Shown here piece after piece: positions 4,309-64,000 of a DNA stretch of 64,000 bases; position 1 is the first letter of the stretch; every line of letters begins with the position of its first letter. The notes under the pieces were generated by a model, which did not search any database, had not been told where the DNA came from, and saw only the letters and a program-made list of their open reading frames with translations. Source of the DNA: Naegleria gruberi (lineage: Eukaryota); the NCBI GenBank assembly GCA_000004985.1, contig GG738847.1; one strand, written 5' to 3'. The translations under genes were made by a program, and so were the position numbers.

Positions 4309-7300
4309 TTATTGTGAATATTTTTCAATAGCCAAATTTTGTACAAGTGAACCAAGTTCAAAGACTGATTTGATTGCTATCAGTTCATCCTTTGGTTGAA
4401 CAAAAAGAGTATTAGCATCTCTTCCATTCTTTGAAAATGCTTCATCCAGTGAGTGATTCACAAATGGTGTGCATTTAGAAGTGAGAAGAGAATGTCTGCA
4501 TAAAACAAAGAGAGCTTTTCTAGCTGCAGACAAGGCAACAGATAATCTGTGAGGATCATTCAAGTGACCAGGATGGGTAGTTCTAACAGTTGAAAGAATG
4601 ACAATGTCATTAACTTGACCTTGATATCTATCAATGGTTGTTACCACTGGATAACCCAAAGATTCACATCTTTGTTTGAGAATATCCCTAATGAGAGTCT
4701 TCTGACCTTGGTATGAAGCAAGAATGGTAATAGAGTCAGAGGAGTGACCAATTAGACGCAAATACATGTACAGTGCTACAGCATATTCAGCCTCTCCTTG
4801 ATTTTGGTACATGTGAGAGGAGAGCAATGTTTCACCTCTTCCATTCAAATCTTCCACATTTACAAGTTGATAATTAAATTTGAATCCTTTCAATTTCTCT
4901 TCAGAATATGTTACATGATCATAAGTGTTTGGATAATTCCATTTGAATAGAGGTAGTAAGGATGAAGAAATTTGAGTTGAATCGAAAGGAAGTTTGATAA
5001 TATTCTCCTCATCAATGAATCTTCCAAAACGAGCAAATAAAGATTGACTCAAGTTGGAGAATGGCTCTATTTGTTTGTTATATACCACAGGTTTCATTTG
5101 ATTTAAATCTCCAATCAAGATTATTTTCTTAATTCTCTTAGATACTGTCATTGGGATGAAAGATTCAATTTCTGAAATTCTGCCAGCATCTTCAATGATT
5201 AATGTGTCAAAATTAAAATTGAGTTCTTGGAATTCCTTTCTCTTTACAGCCGCATGAGTGGAAGTCATGGCAACTACTCTTGATTGTTGAGTAAGAACGT
5301 GGTTACATCTCGATTGGTAGGCTCTGATATTCTCCAATACCTTACATTCGTTGATGAGTTCGAATAATAATTTCAATTCGGAATATAATTCGTGAGCCAT
5401 GTCTAAATTTTCATTAAATGACTCAGACGAGAACAAATGCTCTTCATTCATAACTTCTCTAAAGTAATTTTGGAATGGGAAGTTGGTCTCAAAGAATGAA
5501 AGACTTTCATTTTCCAATTCCTTATCCTTTGAACCACACAACTCCAGGAATGACTTCCAAAGAGAGTGAATATTACCAATAAAGAAATGAGAAGCTGTTT
5601 CACATGAAATATTAGTGAATTGAGGATAGCCAAGAGAAGTAGCCAACTGTTCTAGAGTTTTCAAAACTTCAATTCTTTTTTGAATGAGGTAATTGACTCT
5701 ACCGAATTTGCTATACTCATTCTTTTCACCGCCTAGTCTAAGTAAATGTCTTTCGTGTACTTTAGAATTCTCTAATTGTTCAAATACGCTATTCAAAGCT
5801 AAATTTGACCTAGCAATAATCACTGTTCTTTGATTTGGATTTGTAACATAAATATTCTCAATAATCTTTGTTAAAACGTTATGCTTTCCGCACCCTGGAG
5901 GAGCTTGAATATAGGTGAGTCCCTTTTCTGGGCTGGTTGCTGATCGAATGGCTCTTATTTGCTCCTTACTGAATCTATAACCAGTATCGGTTGCATTAGG
6001 TGATTTCAACTCTCTAGGAATGTATGATGAGTAGGCTGTAACATTCTTCTCCAAACCAAAGGTAACAGTGAAGTAATTAGAATTGGTTGGACTAGAAGCT
6101 TTCAAATTGCTTGGAACATCTAGAGATTCCCTAATATGGTCTTCATCTTGGAAAGAATTTCTAAAATCAACTGTACTCTCAGAAGAATCGAAAGAAGGTT
6201 CATAACCAAGAATATAATCTGATAACCAACTAACAAGGTTGTTTGTTCCATTATTCATTAAATTTCTCATGCTTTCGAGAACAGCTTTGAAATTATTATC
6301 TTTTGGTTTCTGTCTTACTACCAAGTTAAAGTGAGAATAAATGTCTACTCGTGACTTTTCTTGTTCCTTTCTATCAGCAAGATATTGAATCGGATCCAAT
6401 AAGACAACCAATCTACGTTCTGGTGTTGAAAGCTCAAATTCAAGGGTTTCGTCTTGCTCGGCAACCTTTGTTTGGTTGTTAATGACATTTCCATCCGCAT
6501 CCTCTTGCCTCAACAACTCACATCCTCTAATAGAGACAATGCCAAACTTTTCATCGAATTTGGCATTTTCATTGCTGTGCATTTTGGCCTTAATTTGAAC
6601 TAGGAAAAGAATATCATTCTTTCTAATATTTTCCCATTCCTCACGAATACTTTGTGATTCAATAGAGGAAAGATTAATCGTAATGGCTCCTTCAACCTTG
6701 GATGGTGAGGTTTCTCCGATACTTGGGGGAGCAACCTCAACAAGTTCAAAAGGAGAAGTCATCGGAAGGGCCATTCTAAATCCAGAATGAAATTGTGTCT
6801 TGCCAGTTGCAGGATTCTTAGAGTATTCCAAATTAGAAATAGTATTTTCAAGAGATTGTCTCAAGCTGTATGTCTTTTCAAGTTTGAAAAGCTCATAATT
6901 TCTGAGCAAATAGTCAAACAAGGAGAGATATTGAATTCCAAGTTTTGGAATAATATTTGGTAATCCTTTGTAAGCTAAATTGGTTTGAATAGATTCATCG
7001 GTAAGACCTTCAGCCCAAATGGTCTTTTCTGTTGGATAAAGAGAAGTGGTATTGATCTTTTCTATTGGGGATGGTTTTCTTTCGTGATTGGATACTATTA
7101 ATTCAATGAGAAGCTCCTCAGAAAAATCCTCTCCAGTTTCATACTTTCCCACTAAATCTAAATGTCTACACAAATCTACTAGCTCTTCCTTTTTAATTGA
7201 AGCGAGGATCTTTTCGAGGTAATCCCTAGATTGAACTGTAGCAACTGTCTGGACGGAAAGATCCTTTAAACTTTCAGTAAAATGTTGGAATGATATTAAT

Positions 7301-8417
7301 TGCAAATTTGCAACCTTTTCAGCATAAATACCTGCATATTCTGTTGCTGACAAGACTTCTCCTGTATCGTCATTAATATCGAAATGTAAATAGAACTCGT
7401 ATTTCTCTACCAAATCAAAAAACTTTGAAGACTGTGCGCCTGTTCTTAAAAACAATCTACAATGCTCCAAAACATGAGCATCTAACAAGTATAGACGTGA
7501 AAATTTTCTTGTTGGTATTTGAGAAAGTAAATCTATTAAAAATTCTAAAAATCTTTCACAGTATGTCATTAATTCATTATTATCACCTTCTACCAAACTC
7601 TTGAGAGATTCTAAAAAGTGAGTGACAAGAGATGGAACAAAGTTTGACTTGGAATCAGAATTGTTTTTCTTTGCAGAAAATTTTTTCCAATATTTTGTTA
7701 ATCCTCTCTTTGCTATTTCATTGTTTCTTCTAGAAGGATTAACATGAGTCCACAAAGGTAGTGACACATAATCCAAACACAATCTATTTATCAAATCAAT
7801 ATGAGAGAAACAATTAATCAGAAATACGATTAATATCAGTCTTTCCTTTGTATTCCTATATTCCAAATTAATTGCCAAATTATGTAATTGTTCGAATTTA
7901 CTATCAGTAGCAATATCCTTGAAATTAGTTTGATGACATTTTTCATTAATCATTACTATTAAAGATAATATAAATTCTCTAGAGTTTTTTCCATTATCAA
8001 AATTATTCCACAATACACTATTCATGTGTTAATCAATTCATTTCCTAAGAAAACTTACTGTTCAAAATAATTCGATGAAAATAATTGTGCAAATACTCCG
8101 CTAGATTCATTCAACAAATCCATACAAATAACATCAAATACTTGATTAATTAATTGTTCATCAAGAGCAATACACTTTTCCCATCGGGTTGATAAAACTC
8201 TAATTTGTTCATCATTGGCTTGATCCACCTTCATTTTCTTACTAGAGGCCTCTGAAGATCCTTCTTCCACAGTTGTTTGTTGATGATCATCACCATTCAT
8301 ACCATCACCATTATCAGGTAACACATTTTCCTCTGGATTTTTTCTCTTCATTTTTTTAATGCTGGAAAACAAGGTAAGAATAATGTGCTTGCTTGAAGGT
8401 GAATTGTTTTTCTTCAT
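4309..8417 (-). CDS. AQR: intron-binding protein Aquarius / Cwf11-family SF1-helicase-like spliceosomal protein; two exons (8417..8059 and 8017..4309), about 1355 aa
   Basis: The 1238-aa ORF aligns with human AQR (YCERFLEFLIDLL..PTRKF; LGIQYLSLFDYLLRNYELFKLEKTYSLRQSLEN vs [33 protein letters not shown]; Walker A region APPGCGKHNVLTKIIENIY vs GPPGTGKTDVAVQIISNIY). The upstream 120-aa ORF (8055..8417) supplies the conserved N-terminus (QLFSSNYFE / HVLWNNF vs human LEFSQYLENYLWMNY) once a 41-nt GTAAGT...AG intron is removed in frame. Confidence 0.8.
8018..8058 (-). other. spliceosomal intron (41 nt) of the Aquarius-like gene
   Basis: Minus-sense GTAAGTTTTCTTAGGAAATGAATTGATTAACACATGAATAG. The 5' site is GTAAGT, GATTAAC is the branch-like element, and the 3' site is AG. 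The splice joins CA|T into a His codon, restoring one frame and a conserved alignment. Confidence 0.65.
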
Positions 8418-10663: not shown

Positions 10664-13569
10664 ATGAGCCTTAATAATTTTGATGAGGCTTTACTTTCCT
10701 CCTCCGAAGAGGAAAGAATGTTGATGGAGAATGGAGAGGATGATTTAGATGTTCCAAAGGAATTATCGATCGATAATATCAGAGGGATGAAAGCTAGTAT
10801 TGAGAAGAATGTTAAAGACCTTGAGGAAGCTCTTGCGGAAGTAACCACATCAAACGAAGAACCAAATCATGAATTGATCAACGAGTTGAATTTAGCCTTA
10901 GTGCAAAGTAACTTGCTCCTGGAAAAAATAGTAATCATTGAAGATGGATACAAAAAGGCTATCAAAACCGATACTCTTCTCTCACAGGAAATAACTGATC
11001 TTGCCGAACAACTAGGCTTTATTGTACCTCTACACTTAACAAAGACAATAGAAGAAATTTCGGAAAGCGTATCACCCAATACACATCTCAACAATGAAGA
11101 AGAAGAAAATGGCTTAGAAGTTAGGGAGGGTGATTACAAGTTTGTTTCATTCGATGAGTTGGAGAAGTATTTGAACGAGCCGTTACTGCCAGAAGATAGG
11201 AATCAAACTCCAAAAGATAACACTCCCCAAAGGGCAGCAGTTTCAAGTACTTCCACACCAAGTACCAATATAGTCCCAATGCAATCACCAAAAATCACTA
11301 AATCATCACCACCACAATCTTCACAACATTCACCAGCAGATTCTTTAGAAGGTGAACCTGTAACACCAATTACATCAAGAGAAAAGGAATTAAGAAAGGA
11401 ATATTTGAAGAACAGTATTAATATGAGTAAGGTTTCCTTCTCCTCCCCAACCTCAACAGCATCAATCTTTTCCACACCAGCTGTTGAGAGGAGTGACAGG
11501 AAAAATTTAGAGGGAGATGAGTATATTGAGATTACACCAATTGTGGAGGAGGAAAATCCAACTCTAACTGAGGAACAGCAACAATTGATTGAAGAACAGG
11601 ATGTTAACAACCTGTTGGAGCAACTAATGATTTACACAAACGGATTGGATGAAGCAAAGAACTCACCTCGAAATAGACCACTTGGTGATTTGATAAAGGA
11701 TATCAAGGAAGAAGAAGGCACTCCTCAGGAGAACATCTCTTCTCCTAGCATCTTTTTGAGACAAGAAGGAAATGCATCCCCTCATTACACTAGAATTACA
11801 CCTAGAGAAACACCAAGAGAACTCCCAAAAGAAATACAAAGAGAACTTCAAAAGGAAGTTGTCAGAGAAATACCAAGAGAAACTCAAAGAGTGGTCGAGA
11901 GTCCACCTAAACTTTCTGCAACCAATTTGGAAAACGAATTCATGAAGAGAGATTTGGAAGATGCAAAGAGTCAAATAAGCGTATTGAAACAGCAAGTTGA
12001 ATTCCTTCAATCCAAGGTGGCTTCAACGGAAGCTGAAAATTCGGATCTTAAAATGACAATTGAAACTCTATACGAAGCAAAGAATCAGTTCGATGCTGAT
12101 ATGCAATCTATCAAAGAAAAAGAGTAAGTTTATCTGGGTTTACAGTTCACTAACTTTTTCATTTCAAAAGAGAAAAGATTAATTTAATTGCCTCTTCTTT
12201 AGGAGACCATATTGAATTTTTGCAAGGAATGGTTGATAAACTGAAAAATGAAAGAGACAATAAGGTAATCAAACAATCAGAACAATTAACAACCATAATA
12301 GAAACACTCATAAGAAAAGAAAACACTCTTCTCGAAACAGTAGTAAACCAAATGGAAAGTGAAATGAATAATAGAAAAGTAGTGTTGGACGAAGAAATGT
12401 TAAAACTTAAAAAGATTGTTGTTGAGTGTCTGGGCGATGAAGACGAAAGTTCTTCCAAAGAAATTAGCAATGAAACTCTTCATGCTCTTCAATCTGAACT
12501 TCAGACAGTTGCTGATGAACTGAGTGAAATCAACTACTTCCCTTCTGACCCTGATGATGATATCGATAATGCTGTGACCAGAACTTTGGAGTCTCTCGAG
12601 TGCCCTGTAACAATAGAGATTGAAAGAATTGGGTATGGAGAATATTACCTTGACAGAAAATTGTATATCAAACTTGGACCTAAGGGAGAACCTCTTGTAA
12701 AGAATGGAAATGGTTTTATCACATTAACATCGTACGTGAAGAGATTGTATGCTCCTTTCTTCACAACTGAAAAGTATATCAAAGAAGAAGAGCAATTAGA
12801 AATAGAGTCACAAGCTCTTCAATCATCCAAATTTGAATCTCTTCTCCAAAAACTTTCCAAGACCAGGGATTACATTAATAACTTACAAACAACCTCAAGA
12901 TCTGGATCTAACTCACCTCCAGCTTCACCTCCAAGAAGATCATCCCCTCTCAGAAACAATACTACTCTAAATCTTTCTCAATTAAATAACAGCAATGAGA
13001 GCCCTAAAGACTCCTCTTCAAAACTCAGCCCAAGAGATGGACCAAAGTTGATTCAAAAGAAAGAGAGGCAAGAGGATGACAACAAGGAAGGAAGACCAAG
13101 CTCTGCTCCTCCAAATACTAGGTACATTAATATTCTCCAAAGAGCAGAAAAGAATAAGAAGCTTTTGCCAATCAAGCCAACCCCACAAGTAAGAAGACCA
13201 CCTCCAAACAGCATGACCTTTGATAGAAGAAATAGTCCACTTCCACCAAATTATGTCATGCATAACAACAACCTCCTTTTTGTAAAACAACCAGCAACCT
13301 ATGAAAAACAACTCTCAAACTATGAGCAAGTTTTGGCTGCTCACCAATCTGTCAAGAAACCAATTGTTCCTCAAAAGTCTGCCTCAACAAATAACAGTAG
13401 AGCATCTTCACCAAGAAATCATCCATCACAGCAGCAACAACAGCCACAAACCATCAAGTCAACAATGTTTGGTTCTATTGATTTGGGTGATCCAAAGCAA
13501 TTGGAAAAATTGAAGAAACAAGCCCTAAGAATGCAAATCCAACAATTTAGTCAAAAACCAATTCATTAA
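10664..13569 (+). CDS. large coiled-coil / Ser-Pro-rich protein; two exons (10664..12123 and 12171..13569), about 950 aa
   Basis: ORFs 10664..12127 and 12220..13569 join in frame after removal of a 47-nt GTAAGT...CACTAAC...AG intron; the second ORF's frame is already open from 12154. The product has coiled-coil N-terminal and central regions, PRE(T/L)P(K/R)E-type short repeats and an S/P/N-rich C-terminus. Confidence 0.6.
12124..12170 (+). other. spliceosomal intron (47 nt)
   Basis: GTAAGTTTATCTGGGTTTACAGTTCACTAACTTTTTCATTTCAAAAG. The 5' site GTAAGT is at 12124, the branch-like CACTAAC at 12148-12154 and the 3' AG at 12169-12170. Exon 1 ends in phase 2 (GA) and exon 2 supplies A, giving GAA, then continues in the frame of the downstream ORF. 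Confidence 0.65.
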
Positions 13570-13576
13570 AATTCAT

Positions 13577-14076
13577 TTATTTCATATGTTCATCCATCAA
13601 TTGTCTAATGTCCTTCAATTCATTATGTAAAATTCTAAACTTGTCAGCAGACATTTCAAATCTTTCGTGAGTTGTAATTGATCCATCCTCTTCAGAGTGA
13701 AGAATTTTCAAGTTGAGTTGAACTGTTGGTTCATTCATTGTTTTTAAGGTTGATGATGATAAGACTAAATCTACTCTCCATTTTAATTCCTCAATTTTAG
13801 GCACTGTTAATATTTGGTAAGTTGCATGATAAAATCCAACCACTTACATCTCAAAGTTTTAGTTTTAAAATGCTGTATCAGTTTTTCCTTATAATTTTTA
13901 TATGATCTACACAAAGATTCACTGCTTTCTTTTGGTAAACCGATTTGTTGCAATTCGAGTGACAATTGTTGTTCTTCAACATTGAATCTGGCAGAATTAG
14001 AAATAATATATAAAATAGAAGCAATAGCACTCTTGACTTCCTTAATATCTTTACAAGATCCTTCAGTTCTCTTCAA
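13577..14076 (-). CDS. COMM domain-containing protein; two exons (14076..13848 and 13803..13577), about 151 aa
   Basis: The C-terminal ORF encodes a COMM-domain-like sequence (EELKWRVDLVLSSSTLKTMNEPTVQLNLKIL....FEMSADKFRILHNELKDIRQLMDE). The two overlapping minus-strand ORFs are joined by a 44-nt GTAAGT...TATTAACAG intron; the junction codon is T|TG = Leu. Confidence 0.6.
13804..13847 (-). other. spliceosomal intron (44 nt) of the COMM-domain gene
   Basis: Minus-sense GTAAGTGGTTGGATTTTATCATGCAACTTACCAAATATTAACAG. The splice is phase 1 and puts the conserved W-R-V-D COMM motif in frame. Confidence 0.6.
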
Positions 14077-14672
14077 TGCTTTATCATACTATTCCACAAT
14101 CAACAAAATAATTTCGGAAATTAATACATACATCAAATTCTTCTGATTCAATAATTTCCTTCATTACAGCAATTGATAAGAATTTCAATTGAACTGATGA
14201 CTAATAAAAATCCAATTTAATATTCCAATTTAACTGTAAAAACCTACAATATTTGCTAAAATAGCCATATTGGCCAAAAGCCAATCAGGGGCATCCAAAC
14301 CTCCACAAAAGTGAAATCTCTAAGATCGGAATTAATTCTCTCATCAATATTATTTCCAAAGATCAAAACATACCATCCTTCTTTAAATAATTTAATATGG
14401 TACACAAAAGATTTTTTCAACTATCCACACAGTGATGATGGCAAGATTTTAAATCTATTCGTTTTTTTTAAAAAAGAATTATTGAATTTTTAATAATATT
14501 CATAAAATATGAATCATAGCCAAGATACAAGTCAATCCATCGGATCTGATGACAATTACACTATTCACCATCATGGTGGTCATTAACTCTTTCCTATCAT
14601 CACATCATTAGCTATTTCTTAGTTGAAGCACAAAATTTGAAATTTATTGCTTTAAAAAAATATTTTAGAAAA

Positions 14673-15470
14673 ATGTTGCGTGCTGCTCTCACTTCTTCAA
14701 CAAAGGCCCGTCTTTGTTCAAAGAATGTTATTCATTCCTCTCAATTAGTATCATCATCAATTTCCTATACATTCATGAAGAGTTCTAATAACTCTCTTTT
14801 GCTCACGCTGCCATCTAAACAAATAAGGTTCTACGCCGAAGCACAAAGAGAAAAATCACCAAAGAGTAAACATGGAAAGGAATCAAGCTTTAAACGTTTG
14901 TGTAAGTATTAAAATTGTAGCGGAATATGTGATTGTAACAATTTTACCTTCATCACACACATTGGAATTGTCAAAATTATTTCAAATTAATTTTCATACT
15001 ATTATTTACTATCTTTAACAACAACAGCCCACGAGGAATGTGTTCAAGTTTATGACTTTTGGAAGAGCCAAGGAAAACAAATTAATTTTACATTCTATAG
15101 ACAATTCTTGCAACATTGTAATACACTCTGTTGGGACCACCCACAATATGTTGAAAAGGCCCTCTCAATTGCTGAAGACATGAAAAAGGACGGTATTGCT
15201 TGGAATCTTGAAGTTTACTTTATTTTGATCCAATGTTGCATCCGTAGTAAATCACCACAAAATTTAGACAAGGCTTTTGCTCTCCAATCTGAAATGGAAA
15301 AGTCTGGTATTCAATCAACTCAACTTATCTACAATTCACTCATTCGTGGTTGTGCTCTTTTGGATCAAGTGGAAAGAGCCAAGCCAGTTTTTACTGAAAT
15401 GATGAAGTTAAAGGATATTCCACAAGGAATCAAATTTGATGATGTCTATAAGCATCTTAAGGAATTGTAA
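14673..15470 (+). CDS. small mitochondrial PPR-repeat protein; two exons (14673..14901 and 15028..15470), about 223 aa
   Basis: Exon 1 begins with a presequence-like MLRAALTSSTKARLCSK. Exon 2 carries PPR-like 35-aa repeats (QLIYNSLIRGCALLDQVERAKPVFTEM). A 126-nt intron (GTAAGT at 14902, CAG at 15025-15027) joins the ORFs in frame, with junction codon T|CC = Ser. Confidence 0.55.
14902..15027 (+). other. spliceosomal intron (126 nt)
   Basis: Starts GTAAGTATTAAAATTG and ends ..TTTACTATCTTTAACAACAACAG, with a TTTAAC branch-like element. The intron is phase 1 and the downstream frame is open from 15030. Confidence 0.55.
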
Positions 15471-15723: not shown

Positions 15724-16233
15724 TTATATGTTTTGCGATGATGCAAGTTTAGAAGTTTCTTCGTTCAAAATACTTTGGATGAGCAATTCATCTTCATGAA
15801 CGTTATTGCTCATTATCGTTTGAGATGTAATAGTCTTAGATTCGAGTGTAGCATTATTTTGTGGTGTAAGAAGCATATCTTCTCCTTGGTACATATCCTC
15901 ATGAATTGTTTGTTCTTCGTAAACTTGTCTGAATTGATCCTTTTGTTTGTAGCAAGCCCAACGGAATATTTGTTGGTCCTTTCTCATTTGTTCATTGAGT
16001 TCTTTAACACAAGTTGGTGAGGCATCGAACAACATCATGACCCATCTTCCCTTGAAATGTTTTTCTCTGTGTCTATACATCGGATAGGCAAGAGGTAAAA
16101 TACCCATATTATCAAGACGACGGATTACTCCCTTATTTTCAAAAACAACTTGAGCATTTCTCTTCATGACTTGGGCGACTGTTGGTAGAGCAGCCTTTGG
16201 ATTCACGAGGTACACCAATTCGTACAATGGCAT
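15724..16233 (-). CDS. MRP17: mitochondrial ribosomal protein bS6m (Mrp17-like)
   Basis: The N-terminus (MPLYELVYLVNP...) and central block (EKHFKGRWVMMLFDASP) resemble the bS6/Mrp17 family (yeast MLYELIGLV... HFRAYHFLMLFDSS). Confidence 0.6.
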   Translation of the reverse strand: MPLYELVYLVNPKAALPTVAQVMKRNAQVVFENKGVIRRLDNMGILPLAYPMYRHREKHFKGRWVMMLFDASPTCVKELNEQMRKDQQIFRWACYKQKDQFRQVYEEQTIHEDMYQGEDMLLTPQNNATLESKTITSQTIMSNNVHEDELLIQSILNEETSKLASSQNI

Positions 16234-19471: not shown

Positions 19472-19521
19472 NNNNNNNNNNNNNNNNNNNNNNNNNNNNN
19501 NNNNNNNNNNNNNNNNNNNNN
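19472..19521. other. assembly gap (50 N)
   Basis: Run of N. Confidence 1.
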
Positions 19522-19662: not shown

Positions 19663-20265
19663 ATGTCTCAAAACCTTCTCACGGCTGCCACTACCATGAA
19701 CAATCACGAAGAAGAGCTTGAAGTTCCAGGCTTTTCATGGATTATAGAATCGGAATTGGCTGGTATGAAATTTCCATCCCTTCCCGAACATTACAAAAAT
19801 TTAAATCATCATCACATTGGTTTGGTGATTTGTGTGAATGAGAGGGTAGCTTCCTTTGTTGAACAATTACCTCATTCAGAATATTTTAATTTAATTTCTA
19901 AAAAATTACAAAAAATAGAAAATTGTGAAGAATTTACTTATAATGTTGGAAAATTGAATATTGCTCATTTTCCTATTAATGATTATGGAGTTCCTAATAT
20001 GGAATTAATGAATGAAATGATAAAATTGGTAGAATATGTGAGAAAGGTGGATTCGAACAGGGGAATTGTTGTGCATTGCATGGCTGGACTTTCTAGGACT
20101 GGAATGATTCTGGCATGTTTGTTGGTGAGAGTATGGAAAATGACATTTGAGGAGTCAATCAAGTTGGTCAATCAGAAGAGAGGAAGAAATGGTAGAGGAG
20201 TAATGACTAGCAAGCAAGAAGCATTTGTGGAAGATTTTTCAAAGACTATTCCTAATATTCAATAA
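19663..20265 (+). CDS. dual-specificity protein phosphatase, DUSP23/VHZ-like
   Basis: CX5R active site VHCMAGLSRTGMILACLLV, plus N-terminal PGFSWIIESELAGMKFPSLPEHYKNL matching DUSP23 (PGFSWALPGRLAGLALPRLPAHYQFL). 200 aa. Confidence 0.75.
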   Translation: MSQNLLTAATTMNNHEEELEVPGFSWIIESELAGMKFPSLPEHYKNLNHHHIGLVICVNERVASFVEQLPHSEYFNLISKKLQKIENCEEFTYNVGKLNIAHFPINDYGVPNMELMNEMIKLVEYVRKVDSNRGIVVHCMAGLSRTGMILACLLVRVWKMTFEESIKLVNQKRGRNGRGVMTSKQEAFVEDFSKTIPNIQ

Positions 20266-62614: not shown

Positions 62615-64000
62615 TTAATTCAATTTTCTTACAATTAAGGGCCAACCAACTTGTATCACTGTATACTTATGAATGCTTTTTGATTTGTCAGCATCATTTT
62701 CATATTGAGCATATTGTTTGACTTGAGAAATTGCAGAATTCAAAATTGATCTGGCTACAACTTTCTCTTTGGCATGAGTAAGTACTTCCATTTCTAATAA
62801 TTCTTCATCAGTTTGTTTAGATAAATCTTTAAATATATTTTTAAAAATTTGCGGATTCCAATATTCAATATTGGAATATTTTGTTAAAGAATTTGGTCTA
62901 ATATGTTTGAATTCAATTATTAATACTTTTTTAGAAGTTCTTATCACAAGATCAGCACGTTTGATGTATTCCTTATTGTTAGAATTCTTTACATGATATT
63001 CCTTTTCAGCTTGAATTTTCAATTCTTTGTTTCTAAATAAACAATATGCTCTTAATGCAGATTCAATACTTGCTTGTAAACCTCCTTCAGACATTGAATT
63101 GTCATAAATAGTTTCTTGTTTTTCTAAAATATTATTGAGTAACATTCTCAAATTATCTTGGGTAGGTTCATTAATAAAAGTTGATACATCTTTTTCATGT
63201 AGAGATATAAGTCTACGTAACTGCTCTAAATATTGGACTTTTGCAATTTCATTTGGAATTAACAATTGTTTTGGGTTCATCTGTTTTGATGATTCTTTTG
63301 TGAAGGTAACCATACCGTGATAATACATGAATGATAAAGCATTATCACGAATCTTTTGTATATCTTCTTCATTGGATGGTGGATCAATAATCTCTCTTAA
63401 TTTCAGTGAAGGATAAATTGACTCTGTTACTTCTACATAATCTTTTGAAAGTAATTGTTGAATAATATCATTCGATACAACTGATGATGCCAAAGTTGCA
63501 AAAACGTTCTCACTGATCATTGTGTTGGTATCTGTTAATATTGATAATGGAATTTCTTGTTTTTGTAGAACAGCATTTCTGAAAGGTTCATCTTTTACAA
63601 GTTTGTTCAAAAAGAACATTGAAAGAGTTGTGTTGAATAGAGCATGTTTTGAACCAGGAAAATGATAACCTTTATAATACTTTTTCATGGTTGAAATGGT
63701 AATATCTTGATCATTTCCAATAATATCAATGTTATTTAATGCCATTCTCAAATCATTTTCTGTAAAACCAACCAAACCACCAAATATCTTATCAGAGGAA
63801 ATATTACTGGAAACATTATATCCAGATGCATCAGCAAGAGCAATAGGAGTGATACCAGTGATGATACTACGAAAATCTTGTAAACCAGTAGCGGAAGACT
63901 CTTTCAATCTTTCAAAGAAAGAACGAATTGGTGAAGATGTTGGATCTCCTCTCTTTCCTTCAACTATTAATTGATATTTTTCAGGATTTTCAAACATTAA
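62615..64000 (-). CDS. partial (N-terminus lies beyond the window) AAA-ATPase-like / C-terminal PD-(D/E)XK nuclease-like (DUF1703 / PDDEXK_9-type) domain protein
   Basis: The C-terminal RADLVIRTSKKVLIIEFKHI.....AISQVKQYAQY...YTVIQVG matches the D..(I/L)(I/V)..ExK core and the A.eQIk.k.Y tail typical of the DUF1703 family. The frame is still open at the window edge (the codon before the first ATG is TTA). Confidence 0.5.
   Translation of the reverse strand, partial: LMFENPEKYQLIVEGKRGDPTSSPIRSFFERLKESSATGLQDFRSIITGITPIALADASGYNVSSNISSDKIFGGLVGFTENDLRMALNNIDIIGNDQDITISTMKKYYKGYHFPGSKHALFNTTLSMFFLNKLVKDEPFRNAVLQKQEIPLSILTDTNTMISENVFATLASSVVSNDIIQQLLSKDYVEVTESIYPSLKLREIIDPPSNEEDIQKIRDNALSFMYYHGMVTFTKESSKQMNPKQLLIPNEIAKVQYLEQLRRLISLHEKDVSTFINEPTQDNLRMLLNNILEKQETIYDNSMSEGGLQASIESALRAYCLFRNKELKIQAEKEYHVKNSNNKEYIKRADLVIRTSKKVLIIEFKHIRPNSLTKYSNIEYWNPQIFKNIFKDLSKQTDEELLEMEVLTHAKEKVVARSILNSAISQVKQYAQYENDADKSKSIHKYTVIQVGWPLIVRKLN

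Follow-up and report, generated by a model that had tools for sequence, protein, structure and literature searches.

A full-length, five-exon COMMD4 orthologue in Naegleria gruberi with an ATG-only first coding exon

Introduction

Two minus-strand ORFs (13577..13843, 88 aa, and 13807..14076, 89 aa) overlap by 37 nt in different frames in the stretch of Naegleria gruberi DNA analysed here (64,000 nt of contig GG738847.1; 'the window'). An initial annotation, made from the letters alone, joined them across a 44-nt intron into a 151-aa COMM-domain protein and placed the gene in a yeast-like genome, where a COMMD gene would be a surprise. The locus therefore raises the questions of whether a COMM-domain protein is encoded, how far its gene extends, which COMMD it represents and whether its presence is unexpected. 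The region 13577-14376 (minus strand) is almost certainly the N. gruberi orthologue of COMMD4, with five exons encoding 203 aa arranged as an HN (helical N-terminal) domain followed by a COMM domain. The evidence below establishes the gene structure, the domain content, the orthology to COMMD4, purifying selection and the species of origin.

Results

Gene structure

The peptides quoted in the initial annotation (EELKWRVDLVLSSS... and FEMSADKFRILHNELKDIRQLMDE) were located in the two ORFs, and excision of the 44-nt intron (13847-13804; GTAAGTGGTTGGATTTTATCATGCAACTTACCAAATATTAACAG) fuses both frames as had been described. In a Pfam profile search the resulting spliced product matched COMM_domain (PF07258; 62.5 bits, E 4.3e-17; gathering cut-off 22.4 bits), and each ORF also scored by itself: the downstream ORF on PF07258 (64 bits, E 1.4e-17) and the upstream ORF on COMM_HN (PF21672; 54.7 bits, cut-off 23 bits). 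The COMM-domain call is far beyond chance, and the identification of a COMM-domain protein gene is borne out by the profile score, with the alignment to human COMMD4 and the predicted fold in agreement.

The match of this first spliced model to COMM_HN began at profile position 31 of 103, so N-terminal sequence was missing from it. The TTG at 14076 was rejected as the start because it stems from listing ORFs in the bacterial style: the frame runs on upstream through a GTATGT...AATAG intron. The 151-aa product is indeed obtained from this TTG after intron excision, but it is truncated, 52 N-terminal residues short, and 13577-14076 covers only part of the gene, as the CDS reaches 14376 with further exons and introns upstream (Table 1). 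With exons 1-3 added, the COMM_HN match scored 99.5 bits (E 1.8e-28) instead of 64 and spanned the whole profile (positions 1-103 of 103), while the 203-aa product retained a complete match to PF07258 (61.9 bits, E 6.6e-17; positions 1-64 of 64).

The CDS comprises 612 nt including the stop codon, in exons of 3, 72, 69, 241 and 227 nt (stop within the last) separated by four introns of 54, 47, 43 and 44 nt (phases 0/0/0/1); without splicing, stop codons abound in the sequence. An in-frame TAG lies directly 5′ of the RFHF codons and corresponds to the end of intron 1, the donor of which follows immediately after the ATG (14376-14374). Because of this TAG, the ATG can be joined to exon 2 by splicing only. 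Introns placed straight after the start codon are known from other eukaryotic genes. Exon 2 also aligns to the N-termini of homologues P0002, P0003, P0004, P0008 and P0012, and the alignment of the product to human COMMD4 shows no gap at any of the four exon junctions. The four predicted splice junctions are thus supported by comparative and homology evidence. For the 13847->13804 splice in particular, the frames join, N. fowleri and N. lovaniensis each have a phase-1 intron at this position, and no gap interrupts the human COMMD4 alignment there; the ACTAAC box attributed to the introns of this region is absent from this intron, the closest branch-like motif being ATTAAC.

Table 1 Features of the N. 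gruberi COMMD4 locus (window coordinates; domain and residue numbering refers to the 203-aa product).
Feature	Position	Strand	Basis
Coding exon 1, ATG alone	14374..14376	-	Gene model; M1 aligns to human COMMD4 M1
Intron 1, 54 nt, GTATGT...CTTAG, phase 0	14320..14373	-	Position conserved in two sister species
Coding exon 2, 72 nt, 24 aa	14248..14319	-	Aligns to human COMMD4 residues 2-25
Intron 2, 47 nt, GTAGGT...ATTAG, phase 0	14201..14247	-	Gene model; conserved in sister species
Coding exon 3, 69 nt, SSVQLKFLSIAVMKEIIESEEFD	14132..14200	-	First exon of public partial model P0001
Intron 3, 43 nt, GTATGT...AATAG, phase 0	14089..14131	-	Implied by public model P0001; overlooked in the initial annotation
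Coding exon 4, 241 nt, most of HN domain	13848..14088	-	Contains upstream ORF from TTG 14076
Intron 4, 44 nt, GTAAGT...AACAG, phase 1	13804..13847	-	Intron of the initial annotation; position and phase conserved in sister species
Coding exon 5, 224 nt plus TAA stop (13577-13579), COMM domain	13577..13803	-	Gene model
HN domain, aa 9-111, spans introns 2 and 3	13900..14298	-	PF21672 match
COMM domain, aa 128-194, spans intron 4	13607..13851	-	PF07258 match
W137 codon, in KWRVD	13778..13780	-	Alignment of homologues and human COMMD4

The gene is already present in public annotation. The N. gruberi model P0001 ('predicted protein, partial'; 178 aa) matches the product with 100% identity from exon 3 to exon 5 and already contains introns 3 and 4, but the 25 aa of exons 1 and 2 and a start codon are missing from it. 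An ORF-only scan would miss the gene, as the initial annotation had warned, but the intron that it reported is already part of this public model. The full-length model with its ATG-only first exon is the sole, small new item.

Conserved residues and predicted fold

The conserved tryptophan ascribed to the COMM domain was identified as W137, invariant across 12 homologues and aligned to the W of GWRVD in human COMMD4; a strictly conserved Trp in the first strand of the COMM domain is a feature of the COMMD family (PMC10187114). The AlphaFold2 (AF2) model, a monomer of the 178-aa public fragment with moderate confidence (mean pLDDT 68.5), has five helices, three beta-strands and a terminal helix. 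It is helical over residues 2-101 of the fragment, followed by strands at 106-115, 130-141 and 144-155 and a helix at 156-177 (fragment numbering; pLDDT ~56-75), so that the COMM fold, three antiparallel beta-strands and then a C-terminal helix, is found in the model at moderate confidence. A Foldseek search against the PDB gave human COMMD4 as top match (E 1.6e-13, 38% identity), and the 24 best matches were all COMMD or prokaryotic COMMD-like chains. Isolated COMM domains (8f2r_F, 6bp6_A and 8p0w_F) match the model with TMt 0.66-0.77; as the two domains are oriented differently to each other in the model, its global rmsd to solved chains is high, at 12-15 Å.

Orthology to COMMD4

Against PDB sequences, the 203-aa product matched human COMMD4 (8f2r_D) with E 1.4e-43 (151.9 bits; residues 1-199 versus 1-196 of 199), and the next paralogues were COMMD10 (7e-06, 29 bits), COMMD2 (3e-05) and COMMD3 (8e-05). 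Placement outside the COMMD4 clan is unlikely because of this gap of 37 orders in E-value. The ranking of paralogues is identical with the 178-aa fragment and Foldseek agrees. The closest homologues are all from heteroloboseans: N. lovaniensis (89%), N. fowleri (87%), Willaertia magna (74%) and Acrasis kona (54%), the last carrying the name commd4; further homologues are metagenomic proteins.

Conservation in sister species

The counterparts in N. fowleri (FDP41_004724) and N. lovaniensis (C9374_006478), each entered in UniRef as a COMM domain-containing protein, have 203 aa, like N. gruberi COMMD4. When homologues P0002 (N. lovaniensis) and P0003 (N. fowleri) were mapped exactly onto their own loci (L002 and L001, respectively), the annotated genes had exons of 3/72/69/241/224 nt (plus stop) and phases 0/0/0/1, as in the N. 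gruberi model. All four intron positions are conserved in the three species, since exon sizes and phases are identical, and the ATG-only first coding exon is common to all of them. The introns themselves differ two- to four-fold in length (43-54 nt in N. gruberi, 64-164 nt in N. fowleri and N. lovaniensis). Nei-Gojobori estimates over the whole CDS put dN/dS at ~0.03 for each of the three species pairs; synonymous sites are close to saturation when N. gruberi is compared with either sister species (pS 0.71).

These comparisons bear on whether the locus might instead be a decaying pseudogene, or an N-terminally truncated gene of 151 or 178 aa. Such a reading could draw on the public N. gruberi model, which is flagged partial and begins at exon 3, on the failure to find the exact 203-aa N. 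gruberi sequence in a collection of 15 billion proteins, and on the 3-nt first coding exon, an unusual arrangement that is difficult to predict. Exons 1 and 2 are nonetheless intact and encode residues that align to positions 1-25 of human COMMD4, first and second exons of 3 and 72 nt are likewise annotated in both sister species, and the match to the HN profile reaches full length only with these two exons. The shorter alternatives themselves begin at a TTG (151 aa) or have no start codon at all (178 aa), and the dN/dS of 0.03 extends across the whole CDS. Decay or truncation is accordingly very improbable, and the locus is a functional COMMD4 gene under strong constraint rather than a pseudogene.

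Species of origin and genomic context

The initial annotation preferred to see a COMMD gene kept in a budding-yeast-like or other fungal genome, a surprising relic of Commander in fungi. The neighbours are superficially yeast-like (mitochondrial ribosomal protein S6, an HlyIII/PAQR or Izh-like protein), as are the short GTAAGT/GTATGT introns and the G+C content of ~34%. Against this, five proteins of the window, the COMMD4 product and four neighbours on the same 941,567-bp contig (ribosomal protein S6, a predicted secreted protein, a Rho-family GTPase and a dual-specificity phosphatase; EFC49680-82, EFC49479), are 100% identical to N. gruberi NEG-M proteins. No fungal sequence is among the hits with a source-given name, the closest homologues being all heterolobosean as listed above, and the gene pair formed by COMMD4 and its divergent PPR-protein neighbour is syntenic in N. 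gruberi, N. fowleri and N. lovaniensis. The identity of these proteins to N. gruberi accessions refutes a fungal origin, which is left with next to no probability; the fallback offered at the time, that the lineage may not be a budding yeast, was correct. Short GTAAGT introns and AT-rich, compact gene spacing are, as a caution, no proof of yeast.

Beyond the conserved pair, gene order differs between the species. In N. fowleri (L001, 7405-7920) and N. lovaniensis (L002, 7397-7906) the gene immediately 3′ of COMMD4, in convergent orientation, encodes a mitochondrial-type ribosomal protein S6, whereas in N. gruberi the S6 gene (15724-16233, minus strand) is found on the other side of COMMD4, past the PPR gene. 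The change amounts to a minor local rearrangement, with the divergent PPR-COMMD4 pair retained. The PPR gene appears to be split by an intron (ORFs 14637-14912 and 15108-15470, plus strand), and the ~260 bp between it and the COMMD4 ATG (14377-14636) probably act as a shared bidirectional promoter region.

On the 3′ side, a convergent ORF (12220-13569, plus strand; 449 aa, low-complexity, Ser/Pro/Asn-rich) without a Pfam match ends 7 nt from the COMMD4 stop; with the stops this close, the 3′ UTRs of COMMD4 and of the convergent gene must enter each other's gene. This ORF and ORF 10664-12127 (plus strand) may be one gene. Further away, a 1,238-aa ORF (4309-8025, minus strand) with Aquarius N-terminal domains and a superfamily-1 helicase core is an intron-binding spliceosomal helicase, of which a 120-aa ORF (8055-8417) may be an upstream exon. 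About 62% of the window is scaffold gap (39,830 N at 20807-60636 and 50 N at 19472-19521), leaving ~24 kb of real sequence. The dual-specificity phosphatase ORF (19663-20262, plus strand) lies between both gaps and matches EFC49479/XP_002682223 and EFC49494/XP_002682238 exactly; as these are two separate accession pairs, the gene is present twice in the assembly. Past the large gap, a 460-aa ORF (62615-63997, minus strand) gave no Pfam match at E <= 0.001.

Discussion

Once the genome is recognized as that of N. gruberi and not of a yeast, the phylogenetic surprise is gone. All ten COMMDs, CCDC22 and CCDC93 have been reconstructed in LECA (Healy et al. 2023, PMC10187114), every COMMD clan has representatives from all eukaryotic supergroups (PMC10187114) and Commander subunits are broadly retained across eukaryotes (PMC10187114, PMC13392464), including the CCC complex in parabasalids and Anaeramoeba (PMC11267458). 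In fungi and flowering plants the absence of Commander is due to secondary loss (PMC13392464), so the initial annotation was right that fungi lack COMMDs. As COMMDs were present in LECA and the fungal absence is secondary, COMMD4 is to be expected in Naegleria, and the gene is not phylogenetically informative in the way that had been suggested (PMC10187114, PMC13392464). The literature and supplements searched gave general, eukaryote-wide conservation, with no explicit statement on COMMD or Commander subunits of Naegleria such as COMMD8, CCDC22, CCDC93, VPS35L, VPS26C or DENND10; WASH complex subunits have been reported for N. gruberi (PMC7594500), and the WASH complex co-evolved with Commander (PMC13392464). 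The practical yield is a corrected, five-exon COMMD4 model of 203 aa in place of the 178-aa 'partial' one. It carries little weight beyond annotation and leaves the known picture of Commander ancestry and fungal loss unchanged.

Naegleria probably assembles a canonical Commander complex and uses COMMD4 in it. COMMDs are arranged in a ring in the order (1-6)-(4-8)-(2-3)-(10-5)-(7-9), in which the COMM domain of human COMMD4 pairs with COMMD8 and its HN domain touches CCDC93 at the CH domain and the linker (PMC10187114). By homology with the human structures, the COMM domain of Naegleria COMMD4 would pair with COMMD8 as a heterodimer, and five COMMD heterodimers would close into the hetero-decameric ring of the CCC complex with COMMD4 at a fixed position. 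Its HN domain would help to anchor CCDC93, and COMMD4 may in this way take part, with the WASH complex, in the recycling of endosomal cargo that depends on Commander.

COMMD4 might alternatively act outside canonical Commander in Naegleria, as a homo-oligomer like prokaryotic COMMD-like proteins or within a reduced COMMD set. Single COMMDs have been lost in particular lineages, namely parabasalids (PMC11267458) and a moss (PMC10187114), and the title of PMC12370252 refers to a Commander-independent role of COMMD3. The N. gruberi protein is, on the other hand, collinear with human COMMD4 at 38% identity and under strong constraint, which fits a conserved hetero-oligomeric interface, and a role of this kind is judged improbable. 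Similarly improbable is the pair of more speculative ideas that the ATG-only first exon might mark a functionally constrained 5′ intron (e.g. for expression) and that Naegleria might possess, instead of the 16-subunit Commander, a COMMD assembly that is reduced or non-canonical; an ordinary COMMD4 working in a conventional Commander is more probable than either.

For the ordinary COMMD4 favoured here, the closest known system is human COMMD4 (UniProt Q9H0A8; chain D of PDB 8F2R, 8F2U and 8P0W). Unlike the human protein, Naegleria COMMD4 belongs to a heterolobosean amoeboflagellate and is known here from its sequence and predicted fold. The loop between beta-strands 2 and 3 is two residues longer than in human COMMD4. 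The two proteins are of similar length (203 aa versus 199 aa) and align end to end, both have the HN domain followed by the COMM domain, and the motifs MRFxFCGxLDxPDW, ELQQxGLPKE and WRVD are common to both.
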